A stretch of 64,000 nucleotides of DNA, taken from positions 1,440,001 to 1,504,000 of the forward strand of contig OZ244561.1 of the NCBI GenBank assembly GCA_965217585.1, read 5' to 3'. The number at the start of each line of letters is the position of its first letter. The stretch's first letter is position 1. Of the stretch, positions 11,324-18,053 are shown in pieces. This DNA comes from Candidatus Latescibacterota bacterium (GTDB lineage: Bacteria > Latescibacterota > UBA2968 > UBA8231). The position numbers and the translations under genes are program-made. The notes beneath the pieces were generated by a model, which was not told the origin of the DNA, made no database searches, and saw nothing but the letters and a program-made list of their open reading frames with translations.

Positions 11324-11481
11324 GTCTTAGAAAAATCCCAGGGGTGGCCCCGCAAAACAGGTTGACCCAACCCTGAAGAAGCTACTCTTGGCGTTTGGAC
11401 AATGGCAAGGGGAAACTGGGCGAGAGCGCTCGGTTGTGGACAATTGCTTTTCCAATCCGCTCTTATCCTTACATTATAGGT

Positions 11482-11509
11482 CTATGACCGCTATGACCGC
11501 TATGACCGC
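11482..11509 (+). repeat. 9-bp tandem repeat (ctatgaccg x3) spanning the cysH start
   Basis: Gives three in-frame ATGs (11484, 11493, 11502), encoding MTAMTAMTA. Confidence 0.85.
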
Positions 11510-12290
11510 AGACCAAAAGACGCTGGTGCCCTCGCCTCGCGAAGAGCGCAACCAGCAGCTAGCGCACTACCTCCGCGACCTCGCTCTAGAGCAGATGCCC
11601 GCCGAGGACCTTTTGCGCTGGGCCAGCGAGACCTTTCCCGGCCGGGCCGTACTCAACACCAGCTTCCAGTACACCGGGGTTGCGATGATCCACATGGCGT
11701 CGTCTATGGGGCTGGATCTGCGCTTTGCCACCATCGACACCCTCCGGCTCCATCCCGAGACGTACGCCTTTATGGAGGAAGTCAAAGCGCACTACGGCTG
11801 CCACTTTGAGATCGTCCGGCCTAAAAGCGGCGATGTCGAGCGGATGGTCGCACGTCACGGCGAGTATTTGTTTTTCGACTCCAAGGAAAAACAGGAGCAC
11901 TGTTGCCAAGTGCGGAAGGAATGGCCCAACAACGCGCTGTTGCAGACGGTCGATTGCTGGATCTCGGGGCAGCGTTGGGACCAGTCCGAGCATCGCCAGC
12001 AAACGGCGAAAAAGGCGACTTTGATTGACGAGTACGGCACCCGACGCAAAGTACTCAAGCTCAATCCGTTGGTGGACTGGAGCGAAGAAGCGCTGATGGA
12101 GTTTACGCGGGCAAACGACCTGCCGGTCCATCCGCTCTACGGCCAAGGCTACCCGAGCTTTGGCTGCATCATCTGCTCCACCCCAATCCAGCCCGACGAA
12201 CACAAGCGCAACGGTCGCTGGCGTTGGTTCAACGAACAAACCGATGTCGCGGACGACCGCAAAGAGTGCGGGCTGCACTACAACATCTGA
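11484..12290 (+). CDS. cysH: APS/PAPS reductase, [4Fe-4S] APS-reductase type
   Basis: TIDTLRLHPETY, HCCQVRK, KLNPLVDW, HPLYGQGYPSFGCIIC, GRW, KECGLH. Confidence 0.93.
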   Translation: MTAMTAMTADQKTLVPSPREERNQQLAHYLRDLALEQMPAEDLLRWASETFPGRAVLNTSFQYTGVAMIHMASSMGLDLRFATIDTLRLHPETYAFMEEVKAHYGCHFEIVRPKSGDVERMVARHGEYLFFDSKEKQEHCCQVRKEWPNNALLQTVDCWISGQRWDQSEHRQQTAKKATLIDEYGTRRKVLKLNPLVDWSEEALMEFTRANDLPVHPLYGQGYPSFGCIICSTPIQPDEHKRNGRWRWFNEQTDVADDRKECGLHYNI

Positions 12291-12303: not shown

Positions 12304-12654
12304 ATGGCCCACACCTTGGAATGGCGCTACCATCGCCCCGGCTGAACAAGCTGCAAGCGCGCACAAGAGTTTCTTGTGCAGAACGGCATTGCCGACGGCA
12401 TCGTGCAGAGTGCGACCAAAGAACCGGTCGCCGGCACGGAAGCCCTCGCCTTGCTAGAGGGCGCGACCGAGCTTTTCGTCGCCCAAGGGCAGCGCGTCCT
12501 CCGCTTCGACCTAGCGTCGCAACGGCCCGCGGACGAGCAATTGCTCCCGCTTCTGTTGGGGCGTTCCGGCAAGCTCCGGGCACCCGCGTTCCGCTGCGGC
12601 ACGCGCCTAATCGTCGGCTACAACCAAGCGCTGCTGCCGCTGGCGTTGGATTAG
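12304..12654 (+). CDS. ArsC-family thioredoxin-fold selenoprotein (U14-x-x-C17)
   Basis: MAHTLEWRYHRPG-TGA(12343)-TSCKRAQEFL...GRSGKLRAPAFRCGTRLIVGYN. The frame stays open after the TGA and a hairpin follows. Confidence 0.88.
12361..12379 (+). promoter_or_regulatory. Putative bacterial SECIS hairpin
   Basis: GCACAAGA-GTT-TCTTGTGC, a perfect 8-bp stem; the loop starts with G, 23 nt after the UGA. Confidence 0.7.
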
Positions 12655-13788
12655 ATGGAGAAAGGTATGTCAACGGTGGAAAATGATGCCTACCTCGATG
12701 AAGAAGAGATCTGTGTCGAAGAAGAGCGGGAGGATCCGAAAGAAAAAATCACAAATCCATTCAATCCTGAGCAGATCAAAATTCGCACCACCCACATCGT
12801 CGTTGAACAGCTTATATCGCGTATCAAGCACAAGGAAATTGATCTAGCACCAGATTTCCAACGACAGGCCGGCATCTGGAACGACGAGCGCAAGAGCCGC
12901 CTCATCGAATCGCTGTTGCTGCGCATTCCCCTCCCGGTATTCTATGTCGCCGCTGACGAGTCTGAAAAGTGGTCAGTCGTCGACGGCATCCAGCGCATGA
13001 CGACCATATATGACTATGTGACGGGCAAGTTCCCGCTTAAACGACTTGAATATCTAACCAAACTCAACGGATGTACGCACGACGAGCTGCGGAGGCCATT
13101 GCAGCGACGAATCAGTGAAACCCAACTCATCGTCAACATCATAGAGTCGGGTACTTCACCGGACGTGCTGTTCAATGTCTTTCGACGTATCAATACAGGT
13201 GGAATGACGTTGAATGGACAGGAAATACGCCATGCACTGAACCCAGGTCCAGTTCGGGATTATCTGAAGGAACTCGCCGAATCCGACGAGTTCAAAAAAG
13301 CCACGGACGGTAGCATCAATCCAAAACGGATGGCTGATCGGGAATGCGTACTGCGATTCCTCGCTTTCCATATCACTCCGTGGGAAAACTATTCCTCCAG
13401 CGATCTCAATGGCTACCTTGTACGCACTATGCAGGAAATCAACTACATGAGTGAGTGTGAGCGAAACAACTTCGCTGTTGATTTCAGGAGAGCAATGTTA
13501 GCGGCATTCGACATATTCGGTGAGAATGCATTCCGCAAACCACCTAACGACCGCCGACCTCCAATTAATAAGGGCATTTTTGAGGCGTGGAGCGTTCAGT
13601 TGGCGCGTTGTCTGCCAGAGCAGATAAGAGTGCTTGTCGAACGGCGGAATGACATCCAATGTTGTTTCAAAAAACTGATAGCAGAAGACAGCGATTTCCT
13701 AGAGGCCATCTCCTATGCTACTGGATCACCACAAAACGTACAGAAGCGATTTCAAGCAATTGAGCAACTTGTCAAGGAGTTCGTCTGA
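12655..13788 (+). CDS. DUF262/ParB-like protein (Menshen NsnA-like)
   Basis: PDFQR, SRLIESLLLRIPLP, VVDGIQR, FRRINTGG motifs. Confidence 0.88.
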   Translation: MEKGMSTVENDAYLDEEEICVEEEREDPKEKITNPFNPEQIKIRTTHIVVEQLISRIKHKEIDLAPDFQRQAGIWNDERKSRLIESLLLRIPLPVFYVAADESEKWSVVDGIQRMTTIYDYVTGKFPLKRLEYLTKLNGCTHDELRRPLQRRISETQLIVNIIESGTSPDVLFNVFRRINTGGMTLNGQEIRHALNPGPVRDYLKELAESDEFKKATDGSINPKRMADRECVLRFLAFHITPWENYSSSDLNGYLVRTMQEINYMSECERNNFAVDFRRAMLAAFDIFGENAFRKPPNDRRPPINKGIFEAWSVQLARCLPEQIRVLVERRNDIQCCFKKLIAEDSDFLEAISYATGSPQNVQKRFQAIEQLVKEFV

Positions 13789-15080
13789 TGCTTCGCAATA
13801 TCAAGCTAATTCACTTCAAGTGCTTTGAGCAGTTGGAGTTGAATTGCAAACAGCTCAATCTTCTCTGCGGTTTGAACGGGATGGGCAAGAGCAGCGTCAT
13901 TCAAGCATTGCTTATGATCCGGCAATCGTTCGAAACTGGAGAATTACTCGCCGGCAGACTGGTCCTGAACGGCGAGCGGATAGACATAGGTACAGGCGAG
14001 GACGTGCTGTTTGAAGACGCTAAACGCGATGTCTTGGGATTCTCACTTGAGAGCGACAAAATAGAAGAACCATGGGAAGAAGAATTTGACTGTCCTAGGA
14101 CATCTGATCGTCTGAATATTAAAAACAAACTGGACGAAGGAGCTTTGAACAATCTTCTGAGCGATTTTTTTAACGATCGTCTAGATGAGAAAATCTTCGA
14201 CGAGGAGAGCTCCTCGGTACGGGAATTTTTACGGCATTTAGGCCCGATATTGAAGGATGAGGACCCCCCGTTCGACGAAGAGAGCGTCCGGGTAATAGGT
14301 CTGGGATTCCTCTACGTATCTAGCAAATGGCGAAATGTTCCACCGTTTGGAGGCCATCTCGTTTACGTAAATGCAGAACGGGTCGGCCCCCAGAAGTTAT
14401 ACTCTGTCTCTTCCAACGTGCTGACTAGGCGCGGTGATTTCGGTACAAGAGGCGAGTACGCGTGGGATTATCTAAATCGCCATCAGAATGACCTACTACA
14501 GGCGGACGATCCTCGTTGTATTGAGGGAGAGGACCGACCACTGAGGGCCATCGTCGACCAGTGGATGCAGGACGTGTGCCCCGGTGCTCATCTACAACTT
14601 GAAGAGGTGAAAGCTGCTGACGCGGTCATCGCCGGATTTACGTTCGACCGGGAGGACGATGTGGCTTCCCGTCGGTATCGTGCGACCAATGTCGGGTTTG
14701 GTCTATCGTATGCGCTGCCGGTCATCCTCGCCCTGCTTTCAAATCCCGGCACACTATGCCTGATCGAAAATCCAGAAGCTCACCTGCATCCCCGAGGCCA
14801 GACCAAGCTAGCCGAATTGGCAGCCCGTGCATCGAAGGCGGGCGTCCAAGTGATTGCTGAGACCCACAGCGATCACTTCATGGATGGCGTGCGAATCGCG
14901 GTCCGCGACGGCCTTATCGAACCAGAAAACGCCGCATTCCATTACTTTGAGCGCAAAGGCAACCAAACTGTCGTCACTTCGCCGCAAATAGACTCGGACG
15001 GGCGATTGTCGTCGTGGCCTATCGGGTTCTTCGATCAGCACGACGAGAATCTGGCAAGGCTACTTGCACCAAAGGAATGA
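13788..15080 (+). CDS. AAA_21 ATPase with a DUF3696 C-terminus (Menshen NsnB-like)
   Basis: GLNGMGKSS, NVGFGLSY, IENPEAHLHP, ETHSDH, WPIGFFDQ. Confidence 0.88.
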   Translation: MLRNIKLIHFKCFEQLELNCKQLNLLCGLNGMGKSSVIQALLMIRQSFETGELLAGRLVLNGERIDIGTGEDVLFEDAKRDVLGFSLESDKIEEPWEEEFDCPRTSDRLNIKNKLDEGALNNLLSDFFNDRLDEKIFDEESSSVREFLRHLGPILKDEDPPFDEESVRVIGLGFLYVSSKWRNVPPFGGHLVYVNAERVGPQKLYSVSSNVLTRRGDFGTRGEYAWDYLNRHQNDLLQADDPRCIEGEDRPLRAIVDQWMQDVCPGAHLQLEEVKAADAVIAGFTFDREDDVASRRYRATNVGFGLSYALPVILALLSNPGTLCLIENPEAHLHPRGQTKLAELAARASKAGVQVIAETHSDHFMDGVRIAVRDGLIEPENAAFHYFERKGNQTVVTSPQIDSDGRLSSWPIGFFDQHDENLARLLAPKE

Positions 15081-15081
15081 T

Positions 15082-16029
15082 ATGCGCGAGTTAGTACTGA
15101 ACGACGCCAGTATTGATGCCGCCGATCAGCGTACTGCTATGGATTGGCTCGCGGATATCGCTAAGGGGATATCGTCGCTTGTTGTAAAAAAAGTCGTTCA
15201 GAACACATTGCGGACGAGTCGCCCTTTACAGGCGATACATTATCGAGGCAACAACTCGCTTTGGGAGATAATCCTCGCACTGAAGCAACACGGTTTGAGG
15301 GAAGAGTATCTATTTCTCATGAGTAGCAGTGTCAAGACTCCTCTGACAAACGAGCTTGAACAAGGTATCAAAGATCGGTTTCTCTCGTGTGGAGGACGGA
15401 CGTTTCCATCGCCAGCAGGCAATTCCCTCGTCTTATGCGCCATCTCCGATGGAATCGCTGTCAGCTTTCCCTCTGATTCGGTCTGGGATAGAAACCTAAT
15501 TAAAGTTGATTTCTACGAACTGAAAGACGACGGAAGTGGCGAGGTAAGTGAGGAAGAAACGTTTGAAGAGATAGACAATCTCTCACGCTCCGATCACGCT
15601 CCGCCAATATGCGAACGCCATCGACAGAATCTTCGCGGCCAAATCACGAGTGCCGAGGGATTGTGGGATAACAGAAAACAGGCATTTCCTAACCTCCTAT
15701 TCGGGCCGGACATAGAGGATCATCTTACTAAAATAAATACCGGCGACCTAGGGACTATCGTCGGCAAGCTAGCAAGTCTCAATGCTGCTGCAGCCGAGTG
15801 GCCCGATGTTGGAGGCGGTGTACCCCGGTGGAAGACCAAAGTAACCAACGAAAGCGAGTCATTGCAGAACGATGCCAAGGAGCGGGAAAATCGGCGGTTC
15901 AGATCGTACAATGGCATAAGCCAACTATTCCTGTGGCACGCCCGCTTTGGCAATTCTGGCCGAATTCATCTCCGTTTCGATCCAAGTTCGCACGAAGTCG
16001 AAATCGGCTACATTGGGCCGAAATTATGA
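15082..16029 (+). CDS. Third gene of the DUF262/ATPase system with a RelE-like C-terminal nuclease (NsnC-like)
   Basis: C-terminal FLWHARF...GRIHLRF...VEIGYIG pattern and operon position. Confidence 0.6.
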   Translation: MRELVLNDASIDAADQRTAMDWLADIAKGISSLVVKKVVQNTLRTSRPLQAIHYRGNNSLWEIILALKQHGLREEYLFLMSSSVKTPLTNELEQGIKDRFLSCGGRTFPSPAGNSLVLCAISDGIAVSFPSDSVWDRNLIKVDFYELKDDGSGEVSEEETFEEIDNLSRSDHAPPICERHRQNLRGQITSAEGLWDNRKQAFPNLLFGPDIEDHLTKINTGDLGTIVGKLASLNAAAAEWPDVGGGVPRWKTKVTNESESLQNDAKERENRRFRSYNGISQLFLWHARFGNSGRIHLRFDPSSHEVEIGYIGPKL

Positions 16030-16055
16030 ACGCTGTGCATTAGGATGCAAAAAAG

Positions 16056-16117
16056 GCTGTGGAACGAGCCCGATCGTCGGCTATAACCAAGAGCCACTAC
16101 CGATGACTTGGGATTAG
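16056..16117 (+). repeat. Degenerate copy of the last 62 nt of the ArsC selenoprotein gene (12593-12654)
   Basis: 48/62 ungapped identity; translates CGTSPIVGYNQEPLPMTWD* versus CGTRLIVGYNQALLPLALD*. Confidence 0.85.
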
Positions 16118-16259
16118 GATTAGATGAGGAGCATCTTCTATACCGACAACGAGTCCGAAAAGAGGTAGTCGTCGAGGGCATTCAGCGAAGACGGCCATCT
16201 ACAACTAATTCCTTGAGAACATGGCATCAATGAGACTTATTTTATAGAGCGGTAGCTTT

Positions 16260-17363
16260 GTGTCGAACTCCGGTGACCGTTACATATCCGTCGATTTTAC
16301 GGGGACCCTCACTCACGATCCCGAACGGAGAACCCTCCCAAATGGCAAGGCTGTCTGTGAGTTTGAAATTGAGAATGAGGAATGGGAGCACCATCAGTAC
16401 GTGCTACTACATGGGATTACCGGTGAACGGATCATTTGCGAGTGGACTGAAGCCATCCAACGTCTCAAAAACGGTGAGGCCGCTACACTGCATGAGATTA
16501 CCTTTGAAAGGATCATTTGTAAGGCACATGATCAGACAGCTCAAAAGATCACGAACAGTCACCATTGCAAGGGTGGTCACAAAATCAGGATAACTGGCTA
16601 CATCCGACACATCGAAGAGGAGAAGGCGACCTCGTTCTTTACCATAAAATTTGACCAACTAATAGTTTTTGTTGAAGAGATAGAGCTCTATAGTTCTGCA
16701 CAAATACAGCAGATTGCCGACGCACAGAGAATAAGCACACTTTGCCATTTTACCCCAAAAGAACGCCTCAGTAGTATTTTATATCGCGGCTTATTAAGCC
16801 GTCGTTTTCTGGAGGACCTCCCACCATCAAAACGGCCTCCGTTCACTGATCCAGACCGACATGACGGATACAAGGAATCAATCTGTTTGAGCATCGGCTT
16901 CCCAAACTACCGAATGTTATTCCAAAAGACCGGCCATGATGAACAATCCCAATGGGTTATCTTGCTTATTGATACAAAAGTGTTATGGGAATTGGATTGT
17001 GCCTTCTGCCATCAAAACGCTTCTTCTAATCTTGTACGTCGCATTCCATTGGAGGATAGAAAAAAACCCTCAGCATTAAAAAGGATGTTTAGGGATCGGG
17101 ACTACGACAACGAAGGTTTGTACCAGCGTCAATTGCAAATACCCAAAGACTACCCAACGCATCCCCAAGCAGAAGTTCTCGTCTTTAACTCAATTCCAGC
17201 AATGTATATCAAAGCAGTCCTTTTTTACAATGGTACCGCTTTGAAGAAATGGAAGGAAGACAATCCCAAGCCTTATCCTCAAACATTTTCCGCTAACAAG
17301 CAATATTTCAAGCCTAGATGTGATTACGCGGCATGGCAAAGTGATAACCGTAACCTCGCTTAG
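16260..17363 (+). CDS. darT: DarT (DUF4433) ssDNA ADP-ribosyltransferase toxin with an N-terminal SSB-like OB fold
   Basis: C-terminal part has LCHFT...LSSIL.RGLLSR, DPDRHDG, ICLSIGFPNY and QAEVLV. N-terminal VDFTGTLTHDPERRTLPNGKAVCEFEI resembles SSB. Confidence 0.85.
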   Translation: MSNSGDRYISVDFTGTLTHDPERRTLPNGKAVCEFEIENEEWEHHQYVLLHGITGERIICEWTEAIQRLKNGEAATLHEITFERIICKAHDQTAQKITNSHHCKGGHKIRITGYIRHIEEEKATSFFTIKFDQLIVFVEEIELYSSAQIQQIADAQRISTLCHFTPKERLSSILYRGLLSRRFLEDLPPSKRPPFTDPDRHDGYKESICLSIGFPNYRMLFQKTGHDEQSQWVILLIDTKVLWELDCAFCHQNASSNLVRRIPLEDRKKPSALKRMFRDRDYDNEGLYQRQLQIPKDYPTHPQAEVLVFNSIPAMYIKAVLFYNGTALKKWKEDNPKPYPQTFSANKQYFKPRCDYAAWQSDNRNLA

Positions 17364-17375
17364 GAGCGAAGAACA

Positions 17376-18053
17376 ATGGCAAAACGTCCTATTTTTATTC
17401 CAGTCAACGGATTTCCTAACTTCAAAGAGACAGACATAGAGTTTCACTGGTATCCCGGTTTTGCAAAATCACAGATCCAAAAATCCATTGAGTCTTTACA
17501 CAAAGCTGCCAAAAAGAAGGGAATCTCCCCAATTTTGGAAATCTCGGGTAAATCCAAGTCGGACCTAGGCTTTTCGTTGAGTGCTTTTAATCTGCTATTG
17601 AAAACGAATAGCGGACGGACGATGAGTGTGGAATGTGCCTATCAAGGAAGCAAGGTATTTGAAAAAGGCGGTCCGTACCACGAGCTGTATTCGGTGTCAA
17701 GTCGCGCGGCGAAGACCGATAAACGACTGCGAAATTCGGGCGATCTCGTTAAATTCAACTTCTGTGGCGAGGATTTTCCGATTGAACCCAAAACAGCTTT
17801 CTACGATTGGTTATATATGACTGCACTATGCCAGAAGCAACCAAATCCAGTGCAAAAGCTCAAAGAGTTTCAAGGTTTTTCAGACATCGTCTTTAATCCG
17901 AATCGTTCGCTCAATTGCCAGGCTCGGGCTGCTGCGATTTTTGTGTCGTTATCCCCCCAAAGCGAACAGGAGGTACGAGATTATTACGACCGGCTTCAAG
18001 CTAGTGATAAACCTCTTTTATCTCAGCTTTCTCTCTTCAACGGCTCTCTGTAG
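17376..18053 (+). CDS. darG: DarT1-associated NADAR antitoxin
   Basis: MAKRPIFIP, W.PGFAKSQ, LEISGKS, LSAFNL, SVECAYQGSKVF, TAFYDWLY, FNP..SLNCQARAAA; immediately downstream of darT. Confidence 0.82.
   Translation: MAKRPIFIPVNGFPNFKETDIEFHWYPGFAKSQIQKSIESLHKAAKKKGISPILEISGKSKSDLGFSLSAFNLLLKTNSGRTMSVECAYQGSKVFEKGGPYHELYSVSSRAAKTDKRLRNSGDLVKFNFCGEDFPIEPKTAFYDWLYMTALCQKQPNPVQKLKEFQGFSDIVFNPNRSLNCQARAAAIFVSLSPQSEQEVRDYYDRLQASDKPLLSQLSLFNGSL

Follow-up and report, generated by a model that had tools for sequence, protein, structure and literature searches.

A DarTG1-type toxin-antitoxin pair whose DarT1 toxin carries a predicted SSB-type OB fold, and its possible link to single-stranded DNA

DarTG toxin-antitoxin systems stop phages by marking single-stranded DNA (ssDNA). 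[quoted passage not shown] A gene pair from a Candidatus Latescibacterota bacterium raises a related question: what is an SSB-like domain doing on a DarT toxin? The pair lies in a 64,000-nucleotide stretch of contig OZ244561.1 (positions 1,440,001 to 1,504,000 of the forward strand), referred to here as the window, in whose coordinates all positions are given. A sequence-only reading of this DNA had proposed two consecutive open reading frames (ORFs), one for a DarT1 toxin fused to an SSB-like oligonucleotide/oligosaccharide-binding (OB) fold and one for a NADAR antitoxin. Both ORFs were recovered (Table 1), their translations contain every peptide that it had quoted (VDFTGTLTHDPERRTLPNGKAVCEFEI, IICKAHDQTAQKI, KGGHKIRITGYIR, IVFVEEIEL, HFT and QAEVLV), and the pair is almost certainly a DarTG1-type toxin-antitoxin system with an SSB-OB-fused toxin. 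The conserved DarT1-SSB fusion, together with an SSB-type C-terminal tip present in a sister clade, provides concrete handles on DarT1 targeting and activation.

The C-terminal part of the toxin matches the Pfam DarT family PF14487 (DUF4433) over residues 162-331 (E 1.8e-17; 64.2 bits, cut-off 22.5), and a family profile built from 18 aligned sequences (A1) retrieves the DarT1 of E. coli C7 (8baq) at E 2.6e-39. The functional DarT1 residues named in the available portions of PMC11543638 are R52, D54, M71, N104 and E152. Those of the E. coli C7 protein correspond here to R200, D202, M219, N253 and E305, as counted along the 8baq alignment with an assumed one-residue offset of the chain; in alignment A1 each of the five, M219 included, varies little or not at all. 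E305 falls on the residue that is mutated in the E152A crystal chain and, like H163 within the HFT motif, is invariant in 18 of 18 sequences; of the guanine-specific positions in the same alignment, R200 and N253 are invariant and D202 is kept in at least 90%. Equivalents of the NAD-binding His, the catalytic Glu, the R52/D54 proton relay and the base-coordinating N104 are all present and, judged from these conserved catalytic residues, the enzyme looks active. The product of the downstream gene matches the NADAR-DarT1 family PF22397 (E 3.1e-81) and the NADAR protein of Geobacter lovleyi (8bat; E 1.4e-57), in agreement with the proposed antitoxin. By homology, the toxin would ADP-ribosylate guanine bases of ssDNA using NAD+ and the NADAR protein would take the guanine mark off again. 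According to the same portions of PMC11543638, DarT1 modifies ssDNA and not double-stranded DNA.

In toxin fold, key residues, downstream NADAR and two-gene order the pair resembles the DarTG1 system of E. coli C7 (8baq, 8bar and 8bas, with 8bat from G. lovleyi for the antitoxin). However, the DarT1 chain of E. coli C7 (208 aa) matches only residues ~146-350 of the window protein and has no counterpart of its 145-aa N-terminal SSB-type OB fold. The hosts also differ, being enterobacteria for the E. coli C7 system and sponge-associated bacteria for the fusion family of the window. DarTG2 (DarT2 with the macrodomain DarG, in Thermus and Mycobacterium) belongs to the same enzyme superfamily and, in the accessible sections of PMC11543638, also carries out reversible ADP-ribosylation of ssDNA bases. 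In contrast to DarTG2, the antitoxin here is a NADAR protein and not a macrodomain, and the guanine-coordinating Asn of DarT1 is present.

Several lines of analysis assign the N-terminal domain to the SSB family. The Pfam SSB family PF00436 matches the window toxin just above its threshold and over residues 14-43 only (26.9 bits, cut-off 26), but is found in 17 of the 18 aligned family members, with a best E of 8.7e-13. Against solved structures, profile A1 matches about 30 SSB chains over ~90 residues (E 3e-7 to 1e-3) and touches chains of PriB lower down (E 0.02-0.2). A profile of the N-terminal domain alone, from five sequences (A3), retrieves, at E ≤ 0.001, 414 proteins that are 71-273 aa long, and all but one of the best 120 of these 414 carry PF00436. 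A phmmer search with residues 1-156 alone against 1.84 billion representatives gave six matches. One of the six, P0121 (1074 aa, with ~70-residue repeats and 12 matched stretches), is regarded as a spurious compositional artefact.

The AlphaFold2 (AF2) model of residues 1-156 points in the same direction. It was computed from an alignment of 139 rows (A5); a mixed alignment of 130 rows (A4) was set aside since its SSB tails were smeared over the DarT region. The mean predicted local distance difference test score (pLDDT) is 72.7, and scores in the OB core are 80-92. The modelled elements are strands at 9-17, 22-25, 31-39 and 85-90, a helix at 91-99 and strands at 108-123 and 128-143, and their order, strand-strand-strand-helix-strand-strand, is that of the SSB OB fold. 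In a Foldseek comparison with the PDB the top matches are exclusively bacterial SSBs (probability 1.00, E 5e-7, target-normalised TM score 0.58-0.74), with PriB at rank 42, while in BFVD the model matches phage SSBs. On the agreement of Pfam, profiles, model and Foldseek, the N-terminus is predicted to be an OB fold of the SSB type, joined in frame to an intact DarT1 domain, as had been proposed for the first ~145 aa. Its likeness to bacterial SSBs (1eyg and 1sru from E. coli; 1ue1 and 1x3e from Mycobacterium; SsbA of B. subtilis, 6bhw) extends to OB topology, the ~90-residue profile match and probably most of the aromatic positions. A motif, GxLTRDPxLRxLPxGxAVCEF, is shared by the fused OB and a subgroup of free-standing SSBs (P0128-P0130), and AVCEFGLA is common to the fused OB and the nearest free SSBs. 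The OB residues P21, C33, F35, G52, I80, E83, C87 and A94 are invariant in the family alignment. Residue 143 is the last of strand 5 and residue 146 the first of the N-terminal DarT1 helix, which leaves a linker of 0-3 residues; most relatives are three residues shorter at this point.

Could the DarT1 domain be made without the OB fold? The toxin reading frame opens at 16248, after a TAG, and the only in-frame ATG, GTG or TTG codons 5′ of the DarT domain are GTG 16260 and GTG 16401 (codon 48). With these as the only starts, a DarT protein without OB sequence cannot be made; translation beginning downstream of the OB fold, a possibility left by the sequence-only reading, is not borne out, as there is no common start between codon 48 and the DarT domain. 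Two database relatives (P0004 and P0127) are annotated from an identical MSNSG start. In a relative ~95% alike, a single base is absent at 16256, just 5′ of the GTG, which fits a start at 16260. A DNA contig from a public run, possibly the window's own source, is identical to positions 15967-17650 (0 differences), so that the fusion junction is not an artefact of the window assembly alone. Contigs from an RNA library (X14) of the ~95% relative cover 16049-18013, a single one spanning 16354-18013. These are a weak hint that the fusion gene is expressed, since DNA carry-over is possible and contigs are not proof of transcripts; stretches left uncovered in runs X21 and X7 carry no weight. Sponge metagenomes are among the runs containing this stretch.

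The fusion is not a singleton. A search with the whole protein found at least 18 clusters covering 94-98% of the query, together with one fragment. A search with the OB profile for longer proteins gave 24 clusters (at 90% identity), every one with PF14487 and down to ~48% identity to the window; within the limits of this search no other effector was fused to this OB subfamily. Within the close clade, identity to the window is 94-78% for the OB and 93-81% over the full length. Among 58 DarT1 loci (one genome per species) four carry full-length fusions, all in Candidatus Poribacteria, and a NADAR-DarT1 gene lies directly downstream in all four. In a tree of the DarT domain (FastTree, a quick method; unrooted, 117 rows, without the ten fragmentary rows P0007, P0096, P0102, P0104, P0107, P0111, P0113, P0114, P0115 and P0120) the OB fusions form one clade of 24 rows with support 99. 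The SSB+DUF4433 fusions for which the sequence-only reading had suggested a search are thus represented by 24 clusters and four Poribacteria loci.

A subclade comprising the window protein, P0001-P0006 and the fragment P0127 has an internal tandem duplication in the OB fold, which is missing in other fusions. Positions 16406-16438 and 16487-16519 form a direct repeat (85% identical, spacing 81 nt), and residues 50-76 (beginning LHGITGERIICEW) are repeated as 77-103 (beginning LHEITFERIICKA). It was found with a separate direct-repeat search and was not detected by Tandem Repeats Finder. The result is 27 additional residues in the loop before strand 3, where the pLDDT falls to 44-58. This duplication, together with substitutions at two aromatic positions in the same subclade, could be taken as a sign that the OB is a decaying passenger without present function. 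We consider this very improbable: the OB is kept in 24 clusters with invariant residues and a divergence similar to that of the DarT domain, the duplication itself is retained in seven clusters, and a stand-alone DarT start is impossible.

The combination of PF14487 and PF00436 is visible in precomputed database annotations; the architecture exists there and, as far as we have found, is undiscussed. A literature search (passages of main texts, with supplementary architecture tables and many subscription papers lying outside its scope) gave no account of a DarT that carries an SSB tip or is fused to SSB or OB, in agreement with the earlier impression that the architecture is uncharacterised. 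The terms SSB, OB-fold and WD40 do not occur in the accessible parts of PMC11543638, PMC11125620 and PMC11257639. At three of the fusion loci, an ORF of 163-169 aa (72-74% identical, MVFIDTD start) overlaps the start of the fusion gene (L002:4420-4911, L003:4450-4959, L004:4406-4915). It has no Pfam match at E ≤ 0.01 and looks PIN-like. As it is missing from the window and from L001, it was set aside as a third component.

A second connection with SSB appears in the closest relatives without the OB fold. These sister DarT1 proteins of Poribacteria are like the window toxin in their DarT1 domain (44-60% identical), downstream NADAR (e.g. L025), habitat and adjacent position in the tree. However, they have WD40 repeats, ankyrin repeats or no N-terminal domain in place of the OB, and an acidic tail ending in ..DDDIPF instead. 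Among the matches listed there are 102 OB-less relatives (P0019-P0120), of which 62 have an SSB-tip-like C-terminus of this kind, against none of the 24 OB fusion clusters and not the window toxin. In 52 of the 62 the tip is strict (D[DEV]IPF or DD[IL]PF) and follows an acidic tail (mean 22 residues, mean net charge -6.6). Of the other 40, some end in ankyrin repeats or NADAR, or are possibly cut by the end of a contig. In genomes, the tip is found at the Poribacteria loci L009-L013, L016, L017, L020, L024, L025 and L029 and in two other metagenome-assembled genomes or strains; it was not seen in the more distant DarT1 loci L042-L058. The five Poribacteria genomes checked have SSBs of their own (L064-L068) that end in (E/D)DDIPF, matching the DarT1 tip. 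In the DarT tree the tip-rich clade (78 rows, support 96) adjoins the OB clade within a group of 105 rows (support 97). From these sequences, an SSB theme among the DarT1 proteins that reaches beyond the OB fusion is supported.

Other features were observed among these relatives. Loci L014 and L041 are among those bearing the tip, and several OB-less DarT1s have two tips in tandem. P0092 combines DarT1 with RNase HII (E 3.5e-29) and a C-terminal tip, and the N-termini of P0094 and P0098 match cold-shock domains below threshold (18-19 bits, cut-off 27). Besides WD40 and ankyrin repeats, further relatives carry NADAR in one chain with DarT1 (P0075, of 618 aa, P0076 and P0105; loci L019, L022 and L031), one with a macrodomain too. 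In two runs (X21 and X1), contigs matching the NADAR start diverge from the window upstream of 17360, and the foreign reading ends in ..EDDIPF. This suggests that the same samples may hold a tip-bearing DarT1 ahead of a closely similar NADAR.

What, then, might the OB fold do for the toxin? In the mechanism that we favour, with a confidence that does not quite reach an even chance or at best equals it, the OB would be a cis-acting module that engages ssDNA through a retained aromatic platform. It would keep the rigidly attached toxin on the exposed ssDNA of replication intermediates, those of phages first, while a basic DarT1 domain would provide charge and catalysis. The sister clade would arrive at a related localisation by way of its C-terminal acidic tail with the SSB tip DDDIPF. 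Both the OB fold and the tip would then be SSB-derived modules placing DarT1 at replication-type ssDNA. The ssDNA binding by the OB, the targeting to forks and the role in defence are read from sequence and may prove otherwise.

Engagement of ssDNA is favoured by the aromatic columns, which are largely kept in the fusions. Among the columns aromatic in 111 free-standing SSBs, position 42 is W in 22 of 24 fusions, position 82 is F or Y in 17, position 90 is Y or H in every one of the 24, and position 116 is W in 20. The window toxin has W42, F82, H90 and R116 at these columns. Of the E. coli SSB we take W40, W54, F60 and W88 to be the stacking residues, with their numbering compared with the alignment to 1sru. 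Rigid coupling is favoured by the 0-3 residue connection between OB and DarT1. Selection on the fusion is favoured by its 24 clusters, the NADAR gene at 4 of 4 loci, the single clade and the invariant OB residues. For a clade-wide SSB theme we count the tips, the ends of the Poribacteria SSBs and the nucleic-acid modules on relatives (RNase HII and the weak cold-shock domains).

A number of observations weigh against targeting by ssDNA binding. Fused OB cores are acidic, with a mean isoelectric point (pI) of 5.75 (4.43-7.73; n=24, the window and 23 relatives) and a mean net charge of -3.25, whereas the 111 free-standing SSB cores are basic, with a mean pI of 8.98 (6.53-10.43) and a mean net charge of +3.2. 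The window OB has a pI of 5.65 and a net charge of -8. Seventeen columns hold K or R in half or more of the SSBs; just three of them have kept a basic residue in 70% or more of the fusions and several are now D or E, and at the K62 equivalent 23 of 24 fusions have Q. The F60-equivalent column is H in the window and the W88-equivalent column is R, and of the four aromatic positions matched to E. coli SSB two move by 2-4 residues between the hidden Markov model and MAFFT alignments. The duplicated loop is one that contacts DNA in SSBs, and it is poorly modelled. Finally, the AF2 model of the full-length protein, from the 18-sequence alignment, is poor (mean pLDDT 51), so that the placement of the OB face relative to the DarT1 groove is not derivable from it.

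The fused OB thus departs from an SSB in more than its partner. It does not have the basic ssDNA-binding surface, the disordered linker or the DDDIPF tip of an SSB, the last two because DarT1 follows strand 5 directly, and it has a shorter loop connecting strands 4 and 5. Directly after the W40 equivalent, 23 of 24 fusions have D or E. Its acidity and the loss of most of the conserved basic residues set the fused OB apart from a classical, tightly holding ssDNA clamp. By sequence it appears to differ from an SSB simply bolted onto a toxin, which qualifies the idea, put forward in the sequence-only reading, that it loads the toxin onto phage ssDNA; the case may be one of an SSB fold whose evolution leads away from holding DNA by charge. 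As genuine evidence against an SSB-like clamp, the acidic surface keeps three rival explanations alive.

One of these takes the charge as its starting point. The acidic OB, or in the sisters the DDDIPF tail, could fold onto the basic DNA groove of DarT1 and hold the toxin off until abundant ssDNA, or an SSB-interacting protein of phage replication, pulls the acidic module away and turns the toxin on. The tail of SSB docks on its own OB fold, which offers a pattern for such autoinhibition. The charges of the window clade are suitable (OB at -8 in the window; DarT1 domains with pI 9.1-9.6 and net +7 to +14), as are the acidic tails of the 52 strict-tip relatives among the matches listed and the very short connection between OB and DarT1. 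However, the DarT1 domains of the remaining 17 fusions are close to neutral (net -4 to +6), so that charge complementarity is not general; 0-3 residues also give little freedom to swing, and a pure plug needs no retained aromatic SSB positions. The poor full-length model yields no model of an interface. Activation of DarTG1 is itself unsettled, and the available portions of PMC11257639 give no demonstrated contact between DarT1 and its NADAR antitoxin. Overall we regard autoinhibition gated by ssDNA as unlikely, although it is the first of the alternatives that we would consider.

The loss of most of the SSB basic residues would also be expected of an OB that no longer binds DNA and binds a protein instead, for example a phage recombinase, a helicase loader or an SSB partner, and in this way senses infection through the replication machinery. 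OB folds have elsewhere been reused as protein-binding modules. WD40 or ankyrin repeats, which bind proteins, are present on sister DarT1s, as is the SSB tip, itself a protein-binding motif. For several defence systems the trigger is phage SSB or a core replication protein (10.1101/2022.08.27.505566); literature listings name DARNA, Retron-Eco8 and DRT4 in this connection. Against such a decoy or sensor, the OB lacks the tip by which partners usually take hold of SSB, the surface aromatics typical of base stacking are largely kept, and the operon encodes no candidate partner. We place it somewhat below autoinhibition, as an unlikely explanation. If the favoured ssDNA-targeting mechanism or one of these alternatives holds, the finding would extend a link between phage defence and the sensing of SSB or ssDNA which, in the portions of the literature available, is growing.

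Solved OB folds of the SSB family are dimers or tetramers, and this raises a further possibility: the OB could dimerise or tetramerise the toxin in the manner of SSB or PriB, or co-assemble with the SSB of the cell, to give a multivalent enzyme. The PriB chains touched by the family profile are consistent with this. The resemblance to housekeeping SSBs, in contrast, is distant. In the A3 ranking the five Poribacteria SSBs stand at 118-122 of 124 and those of the window genome lower still (one at 30.6 bits, another not among the matches listed), so that mixed tetramers seem unlikely; the region equivalent to H55 has in addition a two-residue insertion. We judge an oligomerisation scaffold improbable, less likely than either of the two preceding explanations. 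The same ranking led us to reject derivation of the OB from the host's own SSB, as the SSBs of the Poribacteria and of the window genome score below all 117 database SSBs. The window genome has three further SSB-family genes (L060, L061 and L062), two of them canonical with DDLPF tips and the third of 133 aa and tipless.

A more sweeping interpretation joins localisation and control. In the sponge-symbiont DarT1 clade, two interchangeable SSB-derived parts might tie the toxins to the SSB network, a charge-inverted N-terminal OB and a C-terminal tip like that of the host SSB, and these would form the missing activation switch of DarTG1. The toxin would stay inactive up to the point at which a replicating phage fills the cell with ssDNA or with partner proteins of SSB, and would then be delivered to the fork. 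We think this unlikely, on a par with the protein-sensing explanation. If true, it would describe a toxin that reads the replication state by SSB mimicry and not by loss of its antitoxin.

Table 1. Coordinates of the DarTG1-type gene pair, its domains and the neighbouring defence genes in the window
Feature	Position	Strand	Basis
Toxin gene, SSB-like OB fold + DarT1 ADP-ribosyltransferase, 367 aa, GTG start	16260..17363	+	ORF list, Pfam, profile matches
Antitoxin gene, NADAR (DarG1-type), 225 aa, ATG start, 12 nt 3′ of toxin stop	17376..18053	+	PF22397, 8bat
OB-fold domain, residues ~8-145	16281..16694	+	AF2 model, Foldseek
Internal tandem duplication in OB fold, 81 nt (27 aa)	16407..16487	+	Direct-repeat search
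DarT1 domain, functional residues H163, R200, D202, M219, N253, E305	16695..17363	+	Alignment to 8baq
NsnA-NsnB-NsnC defence genes; neighbours, outside DarTG module	12655..16029	+	PADLOC

The gene pair has defence genes as neighbours. Directly 5′ of it PADLOC identified a complete NsnABC set (NsnA 4.8e-143, NsnB 6.6e-106, NsnC 2.3e-55). The set and the DarTG pair together occupy a low-GC island at ~12500-18050 (GC 42-54%, against ~62% in both flanks). The fusion was found in none of 24 genomes of the same genus and none of 16 of the same class that were searched, and eight of these have OB-less DarT matches. Taken with the low GC, this absence suggests that the island was acquired horizontally. 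No tRNA was found within window positions 1-30000, and a scan for promoters and terminators gave no signal above shuffled sequences. The flanks consist of ordinary genes, which encode ABC transporters, a PAPS-reductase-domain protein, a sulfatase and a PhyH dioxygenase. The PAPS-reductase-domain gene, at 11388-12290, lies immediately before the NsnABC set.

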